Source of the DNA: Escherichia phage EP75
Sequence record: MG748547
Direction: 5' to 3' (one strand)
DNA: 64,000 nucleotides
The position numbers were made by a program, and so were the translations under genes. The notes below the pieces were generated by a model. It was not told the origin of the DNA and ran no database searches. It saw only the letters and a program-made list of their open reading frames with translations. Of the stretch, positions 21,058-37,905 are shown one piece after another; the stretch's first letter is position 1, and the number at the start of each line of letters is the position of its first letter.

Positions 21058-21291
21058 TTAAGAAACGATAACCGTCGCATCAGAATTAATTGCCTTAACC
21101 CATCCCACCGTCGGCGGGGTTAAAACGACCATATTTCCTTGATATATGATATGCGCGTTGTTACCCGTTGGAGTGCTGGGGCTATCACACAGATACACAG
21201 AACCGTGAGTCACTTGAAGAGTTTTCAAAGATGTGCCGTCTGAGACTTGCGTCCATGTACTTGCGTTTGGTGTGATCTTAGCAGTTGCCAT
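21058..21291 (-). CDS. hypothetical small protein
   Basis: 77-aa ORF with AAGGAGG RBS. Confidence 0.45.
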   Translation of the reverse strand: MATAKITPNASTWTQVSDGTSLKTLQVTHGSVYLCDSPSTPTGNNAHIIYQGNMVVLTPPTVGWVKAINSDATVIVS

Positions 21292-21329
21292 AATAGACCT
21301 CCTTTACAAGTCAGATCTATTTATTACAG

Positions 21330-21360
21330 ACAAAAAGAAACCCGATCATCCTGATCGGGC
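21330..21360 (-). terminator. terminator hairpin CCCGATCA-GG-TGATCGGG followed by TTTCTTTTT, closing the tRNA-region transcript
   Basis: read on minus strand. Confidence 0.5.
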
Positions 21361-21774
21361 TATGTTAAACCATCGTGGGGATGGAAAGACTACTCACAGC
21401 AATTTCTGATAATGGGCGTTGGGAGAGTGCGTCGGGAATCGAACCCGAAATCGTCAGGACGCTGAAAGCTATTTGCATTTCACTTGCATATCCTGCGACT
21501 TTCTTAACTTCCTTAACCCCAGATTGTTATGAAGTCGGCATGCACACCTTCTTCATCTTCAGGAAGTCACACTCATAATTTGATTTGCGATGATGAACCC
21601 ATTTCATCTGGGGTTGGGTGAGTGGGAGTTGAACCCACAACGCTTGGCTCGCTTTCCCTACCATTCAGGCCACCCAATTCCAGGAGGTAGAGCACCTTTG
21701 CCGTCGGTGCCCATATGCCAGTCTTCCGCCCTGGCCTCCACTCGCGTCTGGGATTTCCGCGATGATCGCAAATT

Positions 21775-21858
21775 TGGTGTGAGTGGATGGATTTGAACCA
21801 CCGCGCTGTTACGGGGAGATTTACAGTCTCCTGCATTCGACCGCTCTGCCACACTCAC
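21775..21858 (-). tRNA. tRNA-Tyr (anticodon GTA), class II with long variable arm, CCA encoded
   Basis: hand-folded cloverleaf: acceptor GTGAGTG/CACTCAC perfect, anticodon loop CTGTAAA, T-arm GGTGG-TTCAAAT-CCATC. Confidence 0.8.
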
Positions 21859-22253
21859 ATTTAGTCTACCGCCGCGTGCTGGGCCACGCTTGAGGACATC
21901 GGCCATCCTTCCTCAGCTAATCCACGCGGCGGTAGATTTGGATCAGAGTGTACGGTGTAGCATTCCGCAGGGGTGCACCTACTGTAGCCCTTCCACTCTG
22001 AAATTGGTGGGTGTTACTTCCGTCGGGTTCAGATTCCGTTCGGCTATTGGACTTCGCTTCAAGAGCTTGTCGTTCGCGTACTTCGTGCTTACTTGCTTTC
22101 GTTCACACCCATTGTTTGTCGTCGGGTGGGGGATTCAAACCCCAATCTTTAGTTTGCGTTTCTTCAAAGCTATCATATGTTCACTTTGAATAATAAACTC
22201 CCCTGGACATCATAACAGGATCTCTATTTCATCCTGCAAGACCCGACATAATA

Positions 22254-22329
22254 TGGCGACGATGACAGGACTTGAACCTGCGACATATGGATTAACAGTC
22301 CACCGTTCTACCGACTGAACTACATCGTC
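22254..22329 (-). tRNA. tRNA-Asn (anticodon GTT), CCA encoded
   Basis: hand-folded: acceptor GACGATG/CATCGTC perfect, D-arm GTTC-AGTCGGTA-GAAC, anticodon loop CTGTTAA, T-loop TTCAAGT. Confidence 0.85.
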
Positions 22330-22471
22330 AAATTTTGTGAAGACCAAACGCCGGATCGTAACGGTCGTATGTCTTCGGGTGGCTGTCGTTCTTGATGCTT
22401 ACCATGCGCAGATCATAAGACTGATTCTGCAGGACATACACCAACCACAGCTGTTTTATAAATTCCATCAT
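22328..22471 (-). CDS. small ORF (47 aa) between tRNA-Met and tRNA-Asn
   Basis: minus-strand ATG with GGTGAGG RBS; stop overlaps tRNA-Asn 5' end by 2 nt. Confidence 0.25.
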   Translation of the reverse strand: MMEFIKQLWLVYVLQNQSYDLRMVSIKNDSHPKTYDRYDPAFGLHKI

Positions 22472-22514
22472 AAAGATACCTCACCAAATTTTATTGAACA
22501 ACTGGTTTATTTAG

Positions 22515-22590
22515 TGGTGACCCTGGCTGGACTTGAACCAGCGACCAATCGATTATGAGTCGACTGCTCTAACCACTGAGCTACGGGGCC
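22515..22590 (-). tRNA. tRNA-Met/Ile2-type (anticodon CAT), CCA encoded
   Basis: hand-folded: D-arm GCTC-AGTGGTTA-GAGC, anticodon loop CTCATAA, T-arm GCTGG-TTCAAGT-CCAGC; one C-A mismatch in acceptor stem. Confidence 0.7.
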
Positions 22591-24784
22591 AAAATTGGCG
22601 GGGTCTGAGGCTTTTCACCTCACCTGCTGGATTGGCCTCCAGCTGTTCTCTCTGGGGACTCGCTGTCCGGACAGCTATCCCTTAAACTATCGCCCCATAT
22701 TCAATTGCACCAGAGCATAATTACCGCTATACGACCACCCTCTCGGGCAGGTTGGTTCTGACCCAACGTCTCTCTGATGCGTTTTATTGTGTGCCCAATC
22801 AAGGACTGTCAACCTTTTATCCCGTTTGTGCATGATCAGTTCATGCATGCCTCTTGTGCGCCTCACGGCAACGCGCTTCTGTAGGTCATCGACTTGCACT
22901 GTAGTCTCACCACAGGCGTTTATTTTTCCAGGGCTTTCCACTTACAAGTCTTAACCAGATCGGGATACGGGCTTGTAAGATCGGATTGGACACAACTTTG
23001 ATGGCTCTAGGACTAAAGATCCCGCGTCACCCATAGACTTGGTTTATAAAATCTAGAGCCATCAAAGTTGCAACCAATGTCGCAACTCGCACTTCAGCGT
23101 CTTCGTCTCGCTTCAGCACTTGTCCTCTACGTTCGGACCAAACGAGGCTGGCCGACAGAAACATAACACCACTCATCACTAGAGCGAGGATGTGGTTGAT
23201 AGCCACGATGTTACGTCTCTGTCGTAGAGTGATCACACTTGTCAGGATGATCACTGTTTTGCGAACTTGAAAATACTGCGCCTGTCTCGGGTTTCCCCTT
23301 AGTTCGGCCTCTCATTGTTCGTCTGGTCAGGGAGCTACCCTTGATGACCAGCTTATTTTGAGATCTTCGCCAGCACCCACTAGTGTCTAGAATATGTAGG
23401 TGTCGAGGTCTGCAAGGCATTGCCCTATTTCATACAACGCTCTCTCAAGTGCGCAAATCGAAGTTCTCTGGGCTTAACAGGTTCGACCCAACATGTTGTA
23501 TATCGCCTAACTTGCTCATGGGACGGACACATCTGTGTACAGACCTTGAGGGTTAAAAGATATACCCAGAGAACTTCGATTTGCGTAGCCCTTCACTTGC
23601 CAAAGATCAGGGCTAATAACAAGACTTCGCTCACATCTTTGAGGACACTGCGCGGGACTCGAACCCGCCATGAACATCTGGCGCCAAATGCTTCCACCTG
23701 TCAATGTCCTCAAAGATGTGGAGCCGTTTTAGGGAGTCGAACCCAAATGATTGGCCAGCGCTGACCTCACATCCCATCTGACTTAGGCAACCCACCTCTG
23801 CTACTCAGGAGCTTATCCCCTTTGGACAGTCAGATATAACGGCTTTGGGATTGGAGGAAGGACTCGAACCTTCTCATGTACGCTCCTGATTTCTCAGAAG
23901 TAGCCTGCTCCCATCGACCTATTAAGTACACGCTCCGCTCATTGTTCGGCGGGAGCTTATTAATCACACCCTCCCACCTATTGTTAGTGCGCCGAATTTT
24001 GTTATGAGGAATCGGAAGACCTCACTGACTTATAGGCTATTACGCCGCCATCAGAACTTCGGAATCATTAGCAGTTATTTGCTTGGTCAGTTTCTAAAAA
24101 CCCGCAAAGTCACGCACAACGAAAACGAAAACCTGTTTGAGTCCTAAACCTACCTGTCTTGGTCTCACATCGATATGAGTGGCCAGGACTCAAACAGCTT
24201 GCCGTTCAGTGAGTTAACTATACTTTGTAACCCGTTATTGATAAAACCTTTTATTTTGTTGGCGAGGGTGCGGAATCGAACCACACTTCTGAGCGCTACC
24301 CCGTGTCACCAATGCACCACCTCACCATCGATTTGCCGGAACTTACGCATCCGGCCTCGTCCTGTCGGTGTTCTTCTGAATCCGGGAAGATCAGCAGGAA
24401 CTATGAATCAAGTTAATTCAACCAACAGGAATCCTCTTGTTGCCCTTTGACGCAACATTATGAACCCTCTATGAAGACTCATAATGTTGTCGGCGTGATG
24501 GAGATTAGCGCCCCCGACCTCCCCTTATATGTTGGTGTCGACTTGCCAACAGGGTGCTCTCTGATTCTGAGCTAATCACGCTACAACAGGGAGTTTCGTT
24601 CTCCGACGGTCAAGTGCGTCCACTGACACCAGCGAGGTGGCTATTACGCCTCTATTCACACAAGCCCCTGAGACTAGGGGTTAACTGGTTTTGGGCTGCA
24701 AACCCGACTCCCACTGTGTTATTTCCCTCATGTTTAATACTTTACCGCAGCCCAGCTAATTTGAAAAGTCCTCTCCCCTTTGAG

Positions 24785-24931
24785 CTACACTGCCCACAGC
24801 AGTGCGGACGAACCTTCACTCAAAACCGGATGCGCCGAAGTGGGCAACTGTTTACCGGACTGATCGGGTAGACCCAGGAGAGAGCAGGTAATCCCGATCA
24901 GGAGGATGAGGAGTAACATCATGTAAAACAT
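24785..24931 (-). CDS. small hydrophobic protein (48 aa, one TM helix)
   Basis: minus-strand ORF MFYMMLLLILLIGITCSLLG... with GGAAGGGAGGG RBS. Confidence 0.3.
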   Translation of the reverse strand: MFYMMLLLILLIGITCSLLGLPDQSGKQLPTSAHPVLSEGSSALLWAV

Positions 24932-24988
24932 AGTGTTCCCTCCCTTCCATGCAACTAACTTTACTACAATTATTTATTGAATAAAGCG

Positions 24989-25558
24989 TTATTTTAACAC
25001 TTCTAACTTCACAACACGACGCAGAAGGTAAACATATTCGCCAGCAGCTTCATGCGTCATATAATGGGTAGAAGGTGTGGAATGATTGTTCTGGGTTTCT
25101 TTTAATCCAACACGTTCTGCCCAACCATTAATAGAGTTCCCATAGAAACCGATAATCGCGCCAAAATAAATGCGCTGGCTTTCTGGCTCTAAAACATAGT
25201 TGACAGTGAAGCAAATATCAGAACGAATAGACTCCAGTTTCATACCAACACGACCTTCGGAGAATTCGTTACGAACATATAAATGACGGAAACGATCGCG
25301 CCGCGCTTGTGATGATTCTTCCAATTCTTGTCGGAGTGAAGAAGTTACGTCAATATTAAATGAAAATGTTGGATTCTGTAAATCGGAACGGGCCAACTCT
25401 AACGCAGATTCAACAACGCGACGGAAATTGATACTTTTACCTGTCAGGCGTTTCACTTCATCTGTGATTGTTCCAAAAGGGATTTTCGTGGCGCGTTCCC
25501 CTTCGTATTTTGCCAATAAAGGAATAATGTGTTTCATGATTGCTGTGTTAATGTGCAT
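24989..25558 (-). CDS. hypothetical protein
   Basis: 189-aa ORF; upstream TTCAATAAA + TATAAT hairpin element. Confidence 0.5.
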   Translation of the reverse strand: MHINTAIMKHIIPLLAKYEGERATKIPFGTITDEVKRLTGKSINFRRVVESALELARSDLQNPTFSFNIDVTSSLRQELEESSQARRDRFRHLYVRNEFSEGRVGMKLESIRSDICFTVNYVLEPESQRIYFGAIIGFYGNSINGWAERVGLKETQNNHSTPSTHYMTHEAAGEYVYLLRRVVKLEVLK

Positions 25559-35124: not shown

Positions 35125-37905
35125 ATGGGGTATTTTCAAATGACTAGAAATGTAGAAGAATTATTCGGCGGCGTAATCACAGCTCCCCACCAGATTCCTT
35201 TCACGTATAAATCAAATGTCGGTGGAGAAACTTTCCTTTCCTTGCCGTTCTATCCTGTCACTGGCGTAGTCACAATCAACGGTGGTATGCAAGTTCCGTT
35301 AGACAACTTTGAAATCGAAGGAAATACGTTGAATCTCGGGCGCGCATTGTCCAAAGGCGATGTTGTGTATTGCTTATTCGATAAAATTCTTTCGCCAGAA
35401 GATACAGCCAAAGGTATCCGCATATACAAATTTCAAGCCGTAGGAGGTGAAACCGAGTTCACTCCTGATTTCACATCTTATGGAGTCCAATCTCTTTATA
35501 TCGGTGGCGAGTACAAAACACCCGAAATTGAATATTCCTATAACAGCATGACAGGGAAAGTATCTTTGCAAACTGCACTGACTGCAGGCGTTTGGGTAGT
35601 CGCTGAAATGTCTGTTAGACAACCGAATATCAGTCCGGCATTTGATCGAAGTATTCAAGAAATCGCCCGTTCTGCTAATGTAAAAGACTCTGAAGTCATC
35701 GTTAGTACGGACACCATATCTTTGTTGGATGGGAAGAAAGTTGTTTATGATATAGCGACGCAAACCAGTTATGGTTTACCAACCATACCTGATGGTTCTG
35801 TCATTTCTTCTGTATCTGCTGGGAAATTGAATTACAACCCAGGTGATGTGCAGGTTGATTTGTTGCCTTTAGAAGATTCATTTATTAATGTGATAAACAC
35901 TCTGGGGCGCAATGATGGTGCCAAGTATATTGGAGAATGCCATTCTGTTGCTGATCTCAGGAATACTGAACCCACTATGGATGGACAACGCATTATTCTT
36001 AAGCAACACACTGCGGGTACTCTTCTTGGTGGAGGGGTATTCCGTGCGTTAATTGATGGTACAGGAAAGACTGATAATAACGGTACTGTGATCAAAACTG
36101 TTGGCGGCGCAGCATGGTTACGTGTTAATGCTGATAGAGTTAACCCATTCATGTTTGGTGCTTTGGGTGGTTCTAATGATGATACTATTCCAGTACAATC
36201 TTGTGTGGATAGTGGTAAGGCCACACAATTAACTGATGCACATTACGTTAGCAATATCCAGTTAAAATATAATACGTCGTCTATTTATGGGTCTGGATTA
36301 CATTACTCAAGGTTGCATCAGTTGCCTTCTGCTACTGGGAATTGTATTACCATAAAAGATACATGCTCCCTTATTGTATTAGACGCCTTTGGGGTATATG
36401 GCACAGGTGCACAACAAGGCACGTCATTTACTGCGGGCACAACAGGTATCTATGTAGAAACTCCTTCAGGTCTCTCAGCCGATTATCCGTTCCACACTAC
36501 CGCAGACCCAAGACGCGACTTGTGTATTTCTAAAGTCCATATAGCAGGTTTTGATGAATATGGGTTAAATATTGATAGTGGTAACTTTAGTGTTACTACA
36601 GATTCTCTTTTAGTCAACCACATCAATCAGGTGGGTGTCCGTTGTGCTACTACTGATTGGACTTGGACAAATATCCAGGTTAATACCTGCGGTAAACAAT
36701 GTCTGGTTCTTGATGGTTGTGGTAATGGTCGTATTATTGGCGGTAAATTCATTTGGGCTAACTGGCAACCTTATGGTACAGTAGGACAGTTCCCAGGCAT
36801 TACTATTAATAACAGCCAGAATATGGTTATTAATGGTATTGAGGTACAAGATTGTGGTGGGAATGGCATTGAGATTAGCGATTCATATTCAATTTCCATG
36901 AACGGATTGAACACCAATCGTAACGGCATCAATGCTAACAACACTTTCTACAACATCGTATTTAACAAAAGTGATGCAGTTATCAACGGATTCGTAGGAC
37001 TCAATTATGCCGCGAATAGTGGTTCAGGTGCTAACTCTAGTGCAGGCAATTTTCAGTTCCTGTCTAATGATTGTAGTGTCACCATTAATGGTGTGGTTGA
37101 GACTGGTTATATGGGCATTAACTTTATTGGTGATAACAATATTATCAACCCCACCAATTCCGACCTGAGCATTAACGGATTGGTTAATTATTCCAAGACT
37201 GGTTTGCAAACCATGAACGAGACCCCTACATTTGATGGTGTTAGCACTACACCTGTTTATGTAAGTGTCCCATCTTCTGTAGGGCAAGTAAATGGTCTGA
37301 GACTATCACAAGCCAACAAAGATAAATTACTGTACTCAAGAACAGCAGGTCCAGAAGGTATTACCATGGCTGCTGTTATAGTACCTACTATATCTGGAGC
37401 TGAAGTATTTAACTTCATGGCCATTGGTTCAGGGTTTAGTGATACATCCAACAGTCTTCATCTTCAATTAGTTATAGACGCTTCTGGAAAACAAACAATT
37501 GCTTTGCTATTGGGGGGCGATGGTACAACCCAAATTTTATCTGGGGATTTACCTAACGACCTTAAACTACAAAGTGGTGTGCCATATCATATAGCTATTG
37601 GTGCTAAACCTGGATATTTCTGGTGGAGTATTCTTAATATTCAGACGGGTAAGAGAATCAGACGGTCATTCCGAGGCGCTTATTTAGCCGTACCATTTAA
37701 TTCTATATTCGGATTAACTTCCTCATTAACATTCTTCTCGGATAGCAATGCTGGTGGGGATGCTTGTTCTGGGGTGGGCGCTAAAGTGTATGTTGGTATG
37801 TTCTCTTCTGAGAACGATTATGTAGCTTCACGATACTACAACCTGATTAATCCTGTAGACCCTACTAAGTTAATTAGTTACCGTATATTGGATTCTTCTA
37901 TTTAA
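35125..37905 (+). CDS. tail spike protein with distinct N-terminal baseplate-attachment-like domain
   Basis: weaker copy of the shared module (SEVIVSTDTISLLDGKKVVYDIATQTSYGLP); glycine/serine-rich beta-rich remainder. Confidence 0.6.
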   Translation: MGYFQMTRNVEELFGGVITAPHQIPFTYKSNVGGETFLSLPFYPVTGVVTINGGMQVPLDNFEIEGNTLNLGRALSKGDVVYCLFDKILSPEDTAKGIRIYKFQAVGGETEFTPDFTSYGVQSLYIGGEYKTPEIEYSYNSMTGKVSLQTALTAGVWVVAEMSVRQPNISPAFDRSIQEIARSANVKDSEVIVSTDTISLLDGKKVVYDIATQTSYGLPTIPDGSVISSVSAGKLNYNPGDVQVDLLPLEDSFINVINTLGRNDGAKYIGECHSVADLRNTEPTMDGQRIILKQHTAGTLLGGGVFRALIDGTGKTDNNGTVIKTVGGAAWLRVNADRVNPFMFGALGGSNDDTIPVQSCVDSGKATQLTDAHYVSNIQLKYNTSSIYGSGLHYSRLHQLPSATGNCITIKDTCSLIVLDAFGVYGTGAQQGTSFTAGTTGIYVETPSGLSADYPFHTTADPRRDLCISKVHIAGFDEYGLNIDSGNFSVTTDSLLVNHINQVGVRCATTDWTWTNIQVNTCGKQCLVLDGCGNGRIIGGKFIWANWQPYGTVGQFPGITINNSQNMVINGIEVQDCGGNGIEISDSYSISMNGLNTNRNGINANNTFYNIVFNKSDAVINGFVGLNYAANSGSGANSSAGNFQFLSNDCSVTINGVVETGYMGINFIGDNNIINPTNSDLSINGLVNYSKTGLQTMNETPTFDGVSTTPVYVSVPSSVGQVNGLRLSQANKDKLLYSRTAGPEGITMAAVIVPTISGAEVFNFMAIGSGFSDTSNSLHLQLVIDASGKQTIALLLGGDGTTQILSGDLPNDLKLQSGVPYHIAIGAKPGYFWWSILNIQTGKRIRRSFRGAYLAVPFNSIFGLTSSLTFFSDSNAGGDACSGVGAKVYVGMFSSENDYVASRYYNLINPVDPTKLISYRILDSSI

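Follow-up and report, generated by a model that had tools for sequence, protein, structure and literature searches.

The tRNA cluster of phage T4 contains, at its distal end, two stable non-decoding RNAs of 119–139 nt, species 1 RNA (rnaC) and species 2 RNA (rnaD), and it also carries a homing endonuclease. In rnaC, a T arm (CCGGG-TTCGAAT-CCCGG) is followed by the strand that closes a 7-position acceptor-like stem. The tRNA-like domain of tmRNA (RF00023, RF04321), with its G3:U70 pair and ACCA end, is likewise without an anticodon, and mycobacteriophage DS6A encodes a CDS-less mini-tmRNA of ∼65 nt that is reported to inhibit the tmRNA of the host on expression in E. coli (PMC11915505). Plant-mitochondrial t-elements mimic an acceptor stem and T arm, serve as recognition sites for RNase P and RNase Z, and determine where RNAs end (PMC1920247); they and MALAT1 mascRNA are eukaryotic or organellar and are embedded in longer transcripts. 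Prokaryotic tRNA gene fragments are partial tRNA-like sequences that are mishandled by annotation pipelines (PMC9897764).

We analysed a window of 64,000 nt from Escherichia phage EP75 (MG748547), which is a Kuttervirus (ViI-like, Ackermannviridae). An island of ∼3.4 kb on the minus strand (about 21365–24785), nearly devoid of ORFs, holds three true tRNAs, seven tRNA-like RNAs designated A through G, a further element H, a structured leader and a tmRNA-like tag module (Table 1). Elements A–G share with T4 species 1 RNA its non-decoding nature, its location in a phage tRNA cluster and its combination of an acceptor-like stem with a T arm, and a homing endonuclease likewise occurs in this cluster in relatives. 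Whereas T4 has one or two such RNAs, EP75 has seven of several architectures together with a tag-coding module. The model of element F, R1, scored T4 rnaC at 24.1 bits, a marginal excess over the 20–22 bits of ordinary tRNAs, and no specific sequence homology to rnaC was shown. Elements A, B, D and E (62–66 nt, with neither anticodon nor tag) compare by description with the tRNA-sized, tag-less DS6A RNA; unlike a tmRNA-type domain, they lack G3:U70. The phage elements differ from t-elements and mascRNA, to which A–G have no homology, in having conserved interiors, and from tRNA fragments, which lack a matching 5′ acceptor strand and a conserved structure, in retaining both strands with covariation. 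The tRNA-like module of bacterial Y RNA (YrlA) was considered and rejected, because its Rfam model gave no match at E ≤ 10 and the strand order is tRNA-like rather than permuted. We found no paper on this locus.

Table 1. Features of the EP75 RNA island, listed in the direction of the minus strand (positions are those of the window).
Feature	Position	Strand	Basis and remarks	Acceptor strands	T arm	3′ tail
Element H, 89-nt tRNA-like RNA without canonical T loop	24493..24581	−	Conservation and folding	GCGTGAT/ATCACGC		
Element A, 66-nt tRNA-like RNA	24261..24326	−	T-arm/acceptor scan	GGTGAGG/CCTCGCC	TGTGG-TTCGATT-CCGCA	A-ACA
tmRNA-like 'headless' coding module (MLD)	23947..24134	−	Between A and B; RF04321, 21.5 bits			
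Tag ORF	24040-24072	−	GCU AAU GAU UCC GAA GUU CUG AUG GCG GCG UAA(UAG), ANDSEVLMAA and two stops			
Element B, 65-nt tRNA-like RNA	23846..23914	−	Scan and folding	ATGGGAG/CTCCAAT (G3.A70 mismatch)	GAAGG-TTCGAGT-CCTTC	C-CCA, encoded
Element C, 121-nt branched tRNA-like RNA	23719..23843	−	Scan, folding and comparison	GCCGTTA/AAACGGC	TTGGG-TTCGACT-CCCTA	U-CCA, encoded
Element D, tRNA-like three-way junction (23644-23708) in 19-bp stem	23632..23720	−	Scan and folding		GCGGG-TTCGAGT-CCCGC	
Structured leader	22596..22696	−	Immediately 5′ of CAU tRNA; conserved, three hairpins			
tRNA with anticodon CAT	22515..22590	−	ARAGORN and Rfam; ARAGORN label Met			
tRNA-Asn (GTT)	22254..22329	−	ARAGORN and Rfam, 75.2 bits			
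Element G, 127-nt expanded cloverleaf-like RNA	22121..22247	−	Scan and folding; starts 7 nt after tRNA-Asn	GTCGGGT/ACCCGAC	4-bp stem; T loop GGTTTGA	G-ACA
tRNA-Tyr (GTA)	21775..21858	−	ARAGORN and Rfam, 57.3 bits			
Element E, 62-nt tRNA-like RNA	21615..21676	−	Scan	TGGGTGG/TCACCCA	GTGGG-TTCAACT-CCCAC	A-CCC
Element F, 150-nt expanded cloverleaf-like RNA	21425..21574	−	Covariation and folding; last gene before terminator	GAGTGTG/CGCACTC	TCGGG-TTCGATT-CCCGA	U-CCC
Intrinsic terminator at island end	21339..21361	−	10-bp stem, then T run			

The packing of the island is that of a tRNA operon, in which B, C and D abut, G closely follows tRNA-Asn and F ends at the terminator. The tRNA with anticodon CAT shares 93% identity with E. 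coli genes that bear a tRNA-Ile annotation and is of the tRNA-Ile2 (ileX) type rather than Met. The leader upstream of it begins with GGGG and ends with CCCC-G-CCA; it is 94–97% identical in Klebsiella and Dickeya phages, and its hairpins display one compensatory change and one paired insertion.

The preliminary description of this DNA had listed T-arm signatures (GGTTCGA or GGTTCAA) beyond those of the three tRNAs. These signatures are real and enriched, at coordinates 2–16 nt away from those first given. On the minus strand, GGTTCRA occurs outside tRNAs at 21439–21445, 21629–21635, 23659–23665, 23737–23743, 23864–23870 and 24276–24282, and inside the three real tRNAs at 21793, 22272 and 22533. 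One strand of 21380–24960 has nine matches against 0.57 expected (P ∼1e-8), six of which lie outside tRNAs (P ∼3e-5). The site placed near 22128 actually reads GGTTTGA (22135–22141) and is not a GGTTCRA match. The whole window contains 35 matches compared with 20.5 ± 4.6 in shuffled sequences, none of 100 of which reached 35. Under a strict definition of the T arm (5-bp stem, G53-C61, 7-nt T loop), there are 16 in the whole window, with 14 on the minus strand and 10 within 21425–24326; shuffles gave 4.7 ± 2.2 per 128 kb. A T-arm match at 36648–36786, antisense within a 926-aa ORF, is evidently due to chance.

The suggestion that the cluster contains more than three tRNAs was not borne out, as ARAGORN, and Rfam at its gathering thresholds, recover no tRNAs besides Tyr, Asn and 'Met'. 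Such a scanner result had been put forward as the test of a larger cluster, and formally it goes against one; the test is too strict because elements A–G are in no library. At E ≤ 10, the Rfam tRNA model was negative at the extra sites, which gave only 17–18 bits with tRNA-Sec or mascRNA models. All of the extra elements score below the 29-bit gathering score of RF00005, the best related-model scores being 17.4–17.7 bits (tRNA-Sec, 17.4 bits each for B and E; mascRNA, 17.7 bits for D). Every extra motif is nonetheless part of a structured RNA with an acceptor-type stem and a T arm. Among the possibilities first raised (atypical tRNAs, pseudogenes or other structured RNAs), structured RNAs are what was found, and conservation contradicts pseudogenes.

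Elements A–G are RNAs of 62–150 nt that retain from the tRNA fold its upper half alone, an acceptor-type stem stacked on a T arm, with the D and anticodon half replaced. Immediately after the T arm in all seven comes a 7-nt strand that pairs upstream, forming an acceptor/T-arm minihelix in which, as in tRNA, the acceptor stem (7 bp) adjoins a T stem of 5 bp whose 7-nt loop has the form TTCRANY (in G, a 4-bp stem and TTTGAAT). An anticodon arm with a 7-nt loop, and hence a full cloverleaf, was found in none of the seven, which accounts for the earlier failure to complete standard cloverleaves at these sites. In place of the anticodon arm, B has a 7-bp stem capped by GAAA, D has a hairpin with a GCGC loop, C, F and G have long branched arms, and A and E have 16–18 unstructured nt. 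Four of the seven end in an NCC tail, and the G3:U70 pair and ACCA end of the tmRNA tRNA-like domain occur in no element of the island.

The acceptor criterion alone is lax, since a partner within 220 nt is found in 23–47% of shuffled upstream sequences. The four short elements have their partner at the spacing expected of a tRNA, with chance probabilities of 0.035–0.057 each (0.057 for A, at 58–70 nt; 0.047 for B; 0.035 for E) and ∼5e-6 jointly. Minimum free energy (MFE) folds include the full acceptor stem in all elements except B, where four of the seven pairs form, and the T arm in B, C, D, F and G; in B, the T arm and these four pairs also appear in the centroid fold. The folding z-scores of A, B, C and E (−0.3 to −0.9) are no better than those of shuffles, and the values for D, H, G and F are −1.5, −1.9, −2.2 and −3.8. 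Substitutions that keep the pairing occur in A, D and G. Homologues of A, B, D and E are >93% identical and so offer little covariation.

Element F covaries strongly. An alignment of F (A1) contains 36 pairs that are 96% paired, with 11 compensatory pairs as against 0–3 in slid controls; its loops GUGCAU and GUGAAAUGCAAAUAGCUUUC are invariant. Model R1 finds matches in three genera, and an F-family RNA in a Klebsiella phage-plasmid (70 bits) is situated ∼90 nt from a tag module. Element G contains a hairpin with a 14-nt loop, UGAACAUAUGAUAG, a motif common to F, and comparison with Dickeya LIMEstone1 (91% identity) reveals a compensatory G-C to A-T change in its T stem. Among the shorter elements, A has a D-loop-like ATTGGTGA; in relatives, U3.G70 becomes C-G and a T-stem U.G becomes U-A, so that the pairs are kept, and A is missing from Klebsiella May and EspM4VN. 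In the long stem of D, a T-A pair has become A-T by a compensatory change, and the arms of this stem enclose different inserts or none in other phages; the stem, which closes D with 19 bp, is a plausible RNase III site. Element E has a D-arm-like CCTGAATGGTAGG. Element H, which sits within an outer TGTTGT/ACAACA helix, has a canonical D arm (TAGCTCAG...GAGC) and is kept across genera, with variation mostly in the D loop.

The tag module encodes a ten-codon ssrA-type tag, preceded by a resume context, AAAUAACU, that has U-5 and A-4. Its likeness to tmRNA extends to the resume codon, the AND...AA tag with its stops, the hairpin that follows the tag, and a P2a-like helix (CGGGUUUU/AAAAUUCG) nearly identical to that of E. 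coli tmRNA (CGGGAUUU/GAAUUUCG). At the position of the T arm is a hairpin with a conserved 14-nt loop, GGUGUGAUUAAUAA. Unlike tmRNA, the module has no acceptor stem, canonical T arm or CCA and is closed by a plain helix; a G3:U70 acceptor stem, T arm and 3′ ACCA were found neither on the same piece nor on a paired one, and no element with G3:U70 and an ACCA end lies nearby. The window has a single tag ORF, as does nearly every relative, and 60 shuffles gave no match. The ORF always has 10 codons of the pattern AND-xxx-L-[AM][AV]A-stop, with synonymous changes; five variants were found in the scanned loci, and Erwinia phage Pistou has a sixth (ANDAQFLAVA). The module structure is 92% paired with four compensatory pairs. 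The tmRNA models align over the resume codon and tag with 21.5 bits in the window, 26.3 bits in a prophage and 34.1 bits in the plasmid, all below the 47-bit gathering score. ARAGORN makes no tmRNA call for the module at default settings; at lowered thresholds it does, with tRNA domains chosen inconsistently between genomes. Plain local alignment of F or the module with E. coli ssrA gave no significant similarity. Homologues of the module are present in at least 403 phage records, 553 of 5426 E. coli genomes (∼10% of complete genomes) and 34 Klebsiella plasmids, and no record examined carries a tmRNA annotation for it.

The T-arm motifs, the minihelices with their conservation and covariation, and the tag ORF with its distribution are direct observations, and from them we conclude that the motifs probably mark real genes for non-decoding tRNA-like RNAs, co-transcribed with a tmRNA mimic. 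The transcription, processing, aminoacylation and function of these RNAs can be outlined as a model. The island and its tRNAs would be transcribed together. An acceptor/T-arm minihelix is the minimal substrate of RNase P, which would cleave at the 5′ end of each acceptor stem. RNase III would cut the perfect 18–21-bp stems, and 3′ trimming and CCA repair would complete the ends. Phage RNAs other than tRNAs are among the known substrates of RNase P (PMC11143913). The small, stable products of the island, possibly aminoacylated, would then offer a tRNA- or tmRNA-type domain to the host machinery that handles tRNA and tmRNA. The most likely target of at least F and the tag module would be ribosome rescue (trans-translation), in which they would either form a split tmRNA of the phage or inhibit that of the host; the adjacency of F to the module in the unrelated phage-plasmid favours this role.

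A broader and more tentative proposal is that a split trans-translation device could be carried by many families of enterobacterial phage, among them Ackermannviridae, T1-like, N4-like and Felix O1-like phages, lambdoid prophages and SSU5-like phage-plasmids. Its headless tmRNA gene would retain the P2, resume and tag regions without an acceptor arm, and the anticodon-less F family and its analogues would be separate RNAs, some of which might supply the aminoacyl-acceptor function. Such a device might place a phage degron on the proteins of stalled ribosomes or jam host tmRNA-SmpB during infection. In EP75, F lies 2.5 kb from the module, the adjoining partner of which varies by phage group, and the analysis brought out no pairing of the module with a tRNA-like piece.

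The elements might instead serve purely as processing punctuation: RNase P and 3′ nucleases would cut the precursor, thereby releasing or stabilising neighbouring RNAs and small-ORF mRNAs, and the excised pieces would have no function of their own. The minihelix would suffice for such cleavage, the elements do flank other conserved RNAs and two small ORFs (24785–24931 and 22328–22471), and the long RNase III-like stems suggest heavy processing. Plant-mitochondrial t-elements provide a precedent (PMC1920247). Punctuation would require only an acceptor stem and T arm, yet the interiors of F, G and C are conserved, with invariant loops, and nothing lies between the abutting B, C and D to be released. 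We therefore regard this explanation as unlikely.

Less is to be said for the elements as relics, that is, tRNA pseudogenes and recombination scars of a once larger cluster, left by T-loop crossovers driven by homing endonucleases. The tRNA content of the cluster is highly variable in relatives (Ser, Gln, Trp, Ile, Leu, Arg and a second Tyr), HNH endonucleases are inserted there, and the elements come and go in cassette fashion. One A homologue has a pair-breaking change, and in a Dickeya chimera the 3′ half of E is fused, at the T loop, with another element, and the acceptor partner has been lost. A pseudogene would, however, be expected to undergo neutral decay with pairing-blind substitutions, which the conservation and compensatory changes contradict. 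Across genera, C is 94% (Klebsiella phage May), G 91% and E 100% (Agtrevirus EspM4VN) identical, the level of true tRNAs, compared with 63–74% for flanking ORFs (69.5% in May); being more conserved than their flanking genes, these three are not decaying pseudogenes, although recent cassette exchange in this mosaic region could account for part of the identity. Element F has diverged at the background rate, yet by way of its 11 compensatory pairs, and it recurs in the unrelated phage-plasmid. Stable tetraloop hairpins replace the anticodon arms, with no sign of degradation. A relic origin is accordingly quite improbable.

Genuine atypical decoding tRNAs (armless, intron-containing or permuted) that escaped the scanners would explain the acceptor stems, the T arms, the encoded NCCA tails of B and C, and the 'tRNA-OTHER' or 'tRNA-Undet' annotations in the cluster of relatives. 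This possibility is very hard to sustain: the hairpin loops of B and D have 4 nt where a 7-nt anticodon loop is needed, neither ARAGORN nor, even at E ≤ 10, the Rfam tRNA model recognises the elements, the 50–80-nt inserts fall short of the size of group I introns and have a conserved structure, and the 'tRNA-OTHER' records describe a different element that is absent from the window. Chance occurrence of the motifs in a GC-balanced non-coding stretch, for which the lax acceptor criterion and the match inside the 926-aa ORF might be cited, is effectively refuted by the nine same-strand GGTTCRA matches, the joint probability of the acceptor distances, and conservation with covariation.

Kuttervirus and other Ackermannviridae are widely used in biocontrol and therapy, and ∼2% of their genome is a conserved island of RNA genes. 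The 50-year-old puzzle of the T4 species 1 and 2 RNAs is widened to a family of anticodon-less tRNA mimics, with a testable entry point. Should the action on ribosome rescue prove true, it would constitute a new phage route to exploit or disable trans-translation, and possibly tRNA-targeting defences. The tag module, which is unannotated in the records examined, offers covariance models and tmRNA databases a new target. Elements A–G are likewise without annotation in any record examined, and some pipelines place spurious small ORFs across the island.

The minus-strand T-arm signatures at 21380-24960 belong to genes for tRNA-like RNAs that are conserved, structured, and non-decoding, and the island that they form also contains a tmRNA-derived tag-coding module. 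The signatures pointed out in the preliminary description are real, with nine GGTTCRA motifs on the same strand compared with 0.57 expected; the positions listed there are offset from the true coordinates, and the site near 22128 reads GGTTTGA rather than GGTTCRA. The larger tRNA cluster that they were taken to mark was not recovered: ARAGORN and Rfam (gathering thresholds) give three tRNAs only, for Tyr, for Asn and with a CAT anticodon. Of the readings offered for the remaining motifs, tRNAs and tRNA pseudogenes fail, and other structured RNAs stand. The sole other T arm with an acceptor match in the window (36648-36786, minus strand) lies antisense within a 926-aa ORF (35125-37905, plus strand) and is ascribed to chance.

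Every non-tRNA T arm is continued, at offset 0 or 1 from its T stem, by 7 nt that pair with an upstream segment, so that an acceptor-type stem forms and stacks on it. Seven elements, A through G, are so defined, all of them devoid of an anticodon arm. An acceptor partner anywhere within 220 nt is found by chance in 23-47% of trials, and the criterion alone is thus little proof; with their partners included, the four short elements are of tRNA-like length, for which chance accounts in 3.5-5.7% of trials each and ~5e-6 jointly. The full acceptor stem is present in the MFE folds of all elements except B (4/7 pairs), and the T arm in those of B, C, D, F, and G. B carries a GAAA loop on a 7-bp stem and D a GCGC-loop hairpin, A and E have 16-18 nt without a convincing hairpin, and C, F, and G bear long branched arms. 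The folding z score is significant for F only (-3.8; G, -2.2) and unremarkable for A, B, C, and E. Packing resembles that of tRNA genes, as B, C, and D abut and G starts 7 nt past tRNA-Asn.

Features of the RNA island and related elements in other phages
Feature	Coordinates	Strand	Length	Remarks
A	24326-24261	-	66 nt	3' tail A-ACA
B	23914-23850	-	65 nt	3' tail C-CCA
C	23843-23723	-	121 nt	3' tail U-CCA
D	23708-23644	-	65 nt	no 3' tail; within 19-bp stem 23720-23632
G	22247-22121	-	127 nt	3' tail G-ACA
E	21676-21615	-	62 nt	3' tail A-CCC
F	21574-21425	-	150 nt	3' tail U-CCC
Terminator	21361-21339			strong; follows F
Tag module	23947-24134	-		between A and B
H	24581-24493	-		perfect 7-bp acceptor stem, canonical TAGCTCAG...GAGC D arm, aberrant T arm
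Leader	22696-22596	-	101 nt	directly ahead of CAU tRNA; three hairpins; 3' end CCCC-G-CCA
CAT-anticodon tRNA	22515-22590	-		'Met' per ARAGORN; 93% identity to E. coli genes annotated tRNA-Ile
Stretch with Shine-Dalgarno and start codon	22480-22514	-	35 nt	just downstream of CAU tRNA; 89-94% conserved across genera
Non-coding block	22785-23002	-		upstream of leader; identity of 80-89% in phages of Dickeya and Serratia, well beyond that of flanking genes
Perfect 18-21-bp inverted repeats	22985-23078; 23452-23585; 23632-23720	-		enclose 42-90 nt
Flanking ORF	24989-25558	-	189 aa	phrog_3788
Flanking ORF, other side	21058-21291	-	77 aa
Small ORF	24785-24931	-	48 aa	plausibly real
Small ORF	22328-22471	-	47 aa	plausibly real
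TGCTTCA...TGAAGCA-ACCA element	L001 5352-5440; L003 4725-4810; L009 5191-5279		85 nt	relatives; adjoins tRNA-Ser; absent from window
Acceptor/T-arm RNAs, GTTCCCG...AGGGAAC	L024 7766-7954; L006 3919-4107; L005 2983-3173		185-187 nt	NCCA tails; conserved in Dickeya, Klebsiella and Agtrevirus phages
Acceptor/T-arm RNA, Serratia	L022 8418-8585		164 nt

In an alignment of F from 12 phages of three genera, 96% of the cells of its 36 pairs are paired, with 11 compensatory pairs versus 0-3 when partners are slid; its acceptor stem and T arm are both 100% paired and both covary. Pair-preserving changes also occur in the long stem of D (T-A to A-T), the third pair of A (U.G to C-G), and the T stem of G in Dickeya phages (G-C to A-T). 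Across genera, C, G, and E are 94%, 91%, and 100% identical, as against 63-74% for the nucleotides of the flanking ORFs; F is 73-77% identical with its structure kept, and true tRNAs 74-93%. Identity above that of the flanking ORFs (C, G, and E) and retention of structure (F) run opposite to the pattern of decaying pseudogenes. Cross-genus identity could be inflated by recent cassette exchange, given a plainly mosaic region: elements are gained or missing among close relatives, relatives have tRNAs of other kinds and additional acceptor/T-arm elements (80-187 nt) that are not tRNAs, and Dickeya phages carry a two-element chimera with its junction at the T loop. F and G have in common a 19-nt motif, GTGAA-N6-ATAGCTTT (zero expected by chance), which forms a 14-nt loop on a hairpin at the anticodon-arm position. 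A scan of viral contigs for this motif, with only 14 specified bases, returned chance matches, and the covariance model of F, run over the first 80 of the 120 motif loci, recovered only the G of Dickeya phage LIMEstone1.

H and the leader ahead of the CAU tRNA are further tRNA-like RNAs, but lack the T-loop signature. H is conserved as far as Klebsiella phages, with changes mostly in the D loop, and the leader reaches 94-97% identity in phages of Klebsiella and Dickeya, with compensatory changes in its hairpins. The 85-nt element of relatives is annotated as tRNA-OTHER or tRNA-Leu(aag), and ARAGORN gives it a 2-nt anticodon and the label tRNA-???; it too is a non-canonical tRNA-like gene of the family. 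The 185-187-nt and 164-nt RNAs of other phages have no counterpart in the window.

The elements are not tRNAs, as the anticodon arm is missing and scanners do not accept them. The family definition of tmRNA excludes them as well, since the tRNA-like domain that it calls for, bearing G3:U70 and ACCA, is lacking (G3:U70 occurs in none of the elements) and the model score is below gathering. Homology of F to T4 species 1 RNA (rnaC) could not be demonstrated, with a score no better than that of generic tRNAs; the two have the same acceptor/T-arm design and the same place in a tRNA cluster, and by analogy may also work alike. On local alignment to E. coli ssrA, the tmRNA gene, F, G, the tag module, and the other elements remained within shuffle range, T-loop matches excepted. 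A collinear 11-mer, GTGCATGCCGA, falls at positions 39-50 of the F query (21415-21584, including 10 nt of 5' flank) and 40-51 of ssrA (L148), and F also contains AAAUAGCU, similar to the tmRNA resume context AAUAGUC. These sequence likenesses hint that F may be a reduced, tag-less tmRNA derivative, the 11-mer being only a lead that is not significant by plain alignment.

The block between A and B first stood out as a match to the N4-like phage Pollock. At 24072-24037 it reads GCU AAU GAU UCC GAA GUU CUG AUG GCG GCG UAA UAG, which encodes ANDSEVLMAA followed by two stops, an ssrA-type tag (the E. coli tag is ANDENYALAA). Immediately 5' of the tag lies AAAUAACU, with U at -5 and A at -4, the same as in E. 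coli tmRNA; as read from the sequence, the frame has no start codon and an in-frame UAG nine codons upstream. The tag regular expression has one match in six frames of the entire window (0 in 60 shuffles), one per Ackermannviridae locus, Dickeya excepted, and one in Pollock. Each of the variants (ANDNTFLAVA, ANDDVVLMAA, ANDNAYLAVA, ANDNAYLMVA, and ANDAQFLAVA) has ten codons. Synonymous differences among them, at the AND codons and at the Ala codons of the end, suggest that the peptide is under selection. The alignment to the Rfam permuted-tmRNA model spans the resume codon and tag, at 21.5 bits in the window, 26.3 in a prophage, and 34.1 in a plasmid (gathering score, 47). Three tag-flanking structures are 92% paired across ten diverse sequences, with 4 compensatory pairs versus 0-1 in controls. 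They are a P2a-like helix (CGGGUUUU/AAAAUUCG; CGGGAUUU/GAAUUUCG in E. coli), a covarying hairpin after the tag, and, where the T arm would be, a hairpin with the invariant loop GGUGUGAUUAAUAA. It has no acceptor stem and no CCA, and we therefore named it a 'headless' tmRNA. ARAGORN does not detect it at default settings; at 80-90% thresholds, permuted tmRNAs with these tags are reported among many false positives, with a tRNA domain that differs between genomes, and were discarded. A scan for a one-piece ancestor, in which a canonical T arm would come after the 3' strand of the module, gave no candidate: the matches listed are at chance level, and none of them has a tag.

Phage records with the module number 403, from Ackermannviridae, T1-like, N4-like, G7C-like, Felix O1-like, and other phages. 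Of 5426 complete E. coli genomes, 553 have it, at 150 places on chromosomes and 438 on plasmids, and so do 34 Klebsiella plasmids of ~110 kb, all non-mobilizable; none of the examined records annotates it as tmRNA. In the lambdoid prophage of E. coli 55989 it lies between the antiterminator Q and holin genes with long hairpins on either side; the acceptor/T-arm element that comes next spans ~126-135 nt, has the tail A-CCC, and scores 20.2 bits against Rfam tmRNA. Shigella phage DS8 has the same layout directly behind a promoter. In phage St11Ph5 a 72-nt tRNA-like gene precedes the module and two elements with ACCA tails follow, and in Erwinia phage Pistou the module breaks a 22-tRNA array and comes after a 165-nt element whose tail is G-CCA. 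In a Klebsiella phage-plasmid, the RNA ~90 nt after the module clearly belongs to the F family, at 70 bits (E 7e-20) and with compensatory changes in each of its helices; BLAST of this homologue against phage records gave no match, so that its link to F is through the covariance model only. The co-occurrence of F and the module in Kuttervirus, Agtrevirus, and Taipeivirus therefore reaches an unrelated phage-plasmid, and Dickeya phages are without both. The type of partner varies in other phage groups: the Pistou and prophage elements are unsupported as F-family members (10 and 22 bits). Nor is another neighbor an obligate partner, A being absent from Klebsiella phage May and EspM4VN, C from Agtrevirus, KN2-1, and Serratia phages, and the hairpin just upstream of the module having GCCA in some genomes only. 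Base pairing between the module and a tRNA-like RNA was not demonstrated for any, and duplex prediction for A and the module was uninformative. A hairpin ACAACAGGTAAGAGCA... around the module is common to the prophages, DS8, Pollock, and St11Ph5 and differs from the inverted repeats of the window.

RNase P and the CCA-adding enzyme need no more than the acceptor/T-arm minihelix as a substrate, and RNase III substrates include perfect stems of ~20 bp. Bacterial RNase P also matures phage and other non-tRNA RNAs (PMC11143913). Because of these activities, we propose that the elements would be co-transcribed with the tRNAs and released by excision as small RNAs that are stable, like T4 species 1 RNA. 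The best lead to a downstream role is ribosome rescue, to which the linkage of F and the tag module may point, together with the analogy of phage DS6A, whose tag-less tmRNA of ~65 nt is reported to inhibit host tmRNA (PMC11915505). That the module and a tRNA-like partner might constitute a split tmRNA is a much more novel possibility and a less certain one. Literature searches on Ackermannviridae tRNA-like RNAs, Kuttervirus transcriptomes, and prophage tmRNA-like RNAs retrieved nothing relevant, and we found no publication that describes these elements.

The genome is a Kuttervirus (ViI-like, Ackermannviridae), and 21300-25000 is 97.5% identical to Salmonella phage Se-J, with matches in 320 phage records. 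Kuttervirus, Agtrevirus, Taipeivirus, Limestonevirus, and Miltonvirus have a common gene order, in which a leftward baseplate wedge gene and a 190-aa gene are followed by a multi-kb, almost unannotated segment and then small structural genes. Besides the two plausible small ORFs, the region contains no minus-strand ORF >93 aa. Automatic annotation of Salmonella phage KE28 (L002 1130-4513) places 17 tiny 'hypothetical protein' CDS on both strands of the island, almost certainly spurious calls on top of RNA genes. An 84-aa GTG ORF (22687-22941) without a PHROG match overlaps the non-coding block and is probably not coding. The perfect inverted repeats, at which Rfam matches to miRNA precursors are spurious, resemble RNase III sites or the borders of cassettes; the two arms of the D stem have, in other phages, different inserts between them or none. 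The CAT-anticodon tRNA, by its identity to E. coli tRNA-Ile genes, is therefore an ileX-type tRNA-Ile2 that would decode AUA once lysidine-modified; GenBank relatives are split over its label, Met in some and Ile in others. Plus-strand Rfam matches to Plastid-ycf2 5'UTR (22517-22590, 37.5 bits; 21613-21676, 19.3 bits) are antisense images of this tRNA and of E, reflecting model cross-talk. The conserved 35-nt stretch downstream of the tRNA sits ahead of small ORFs that differ from phage to phage, in the manner of a portable translation-initiation cassette.
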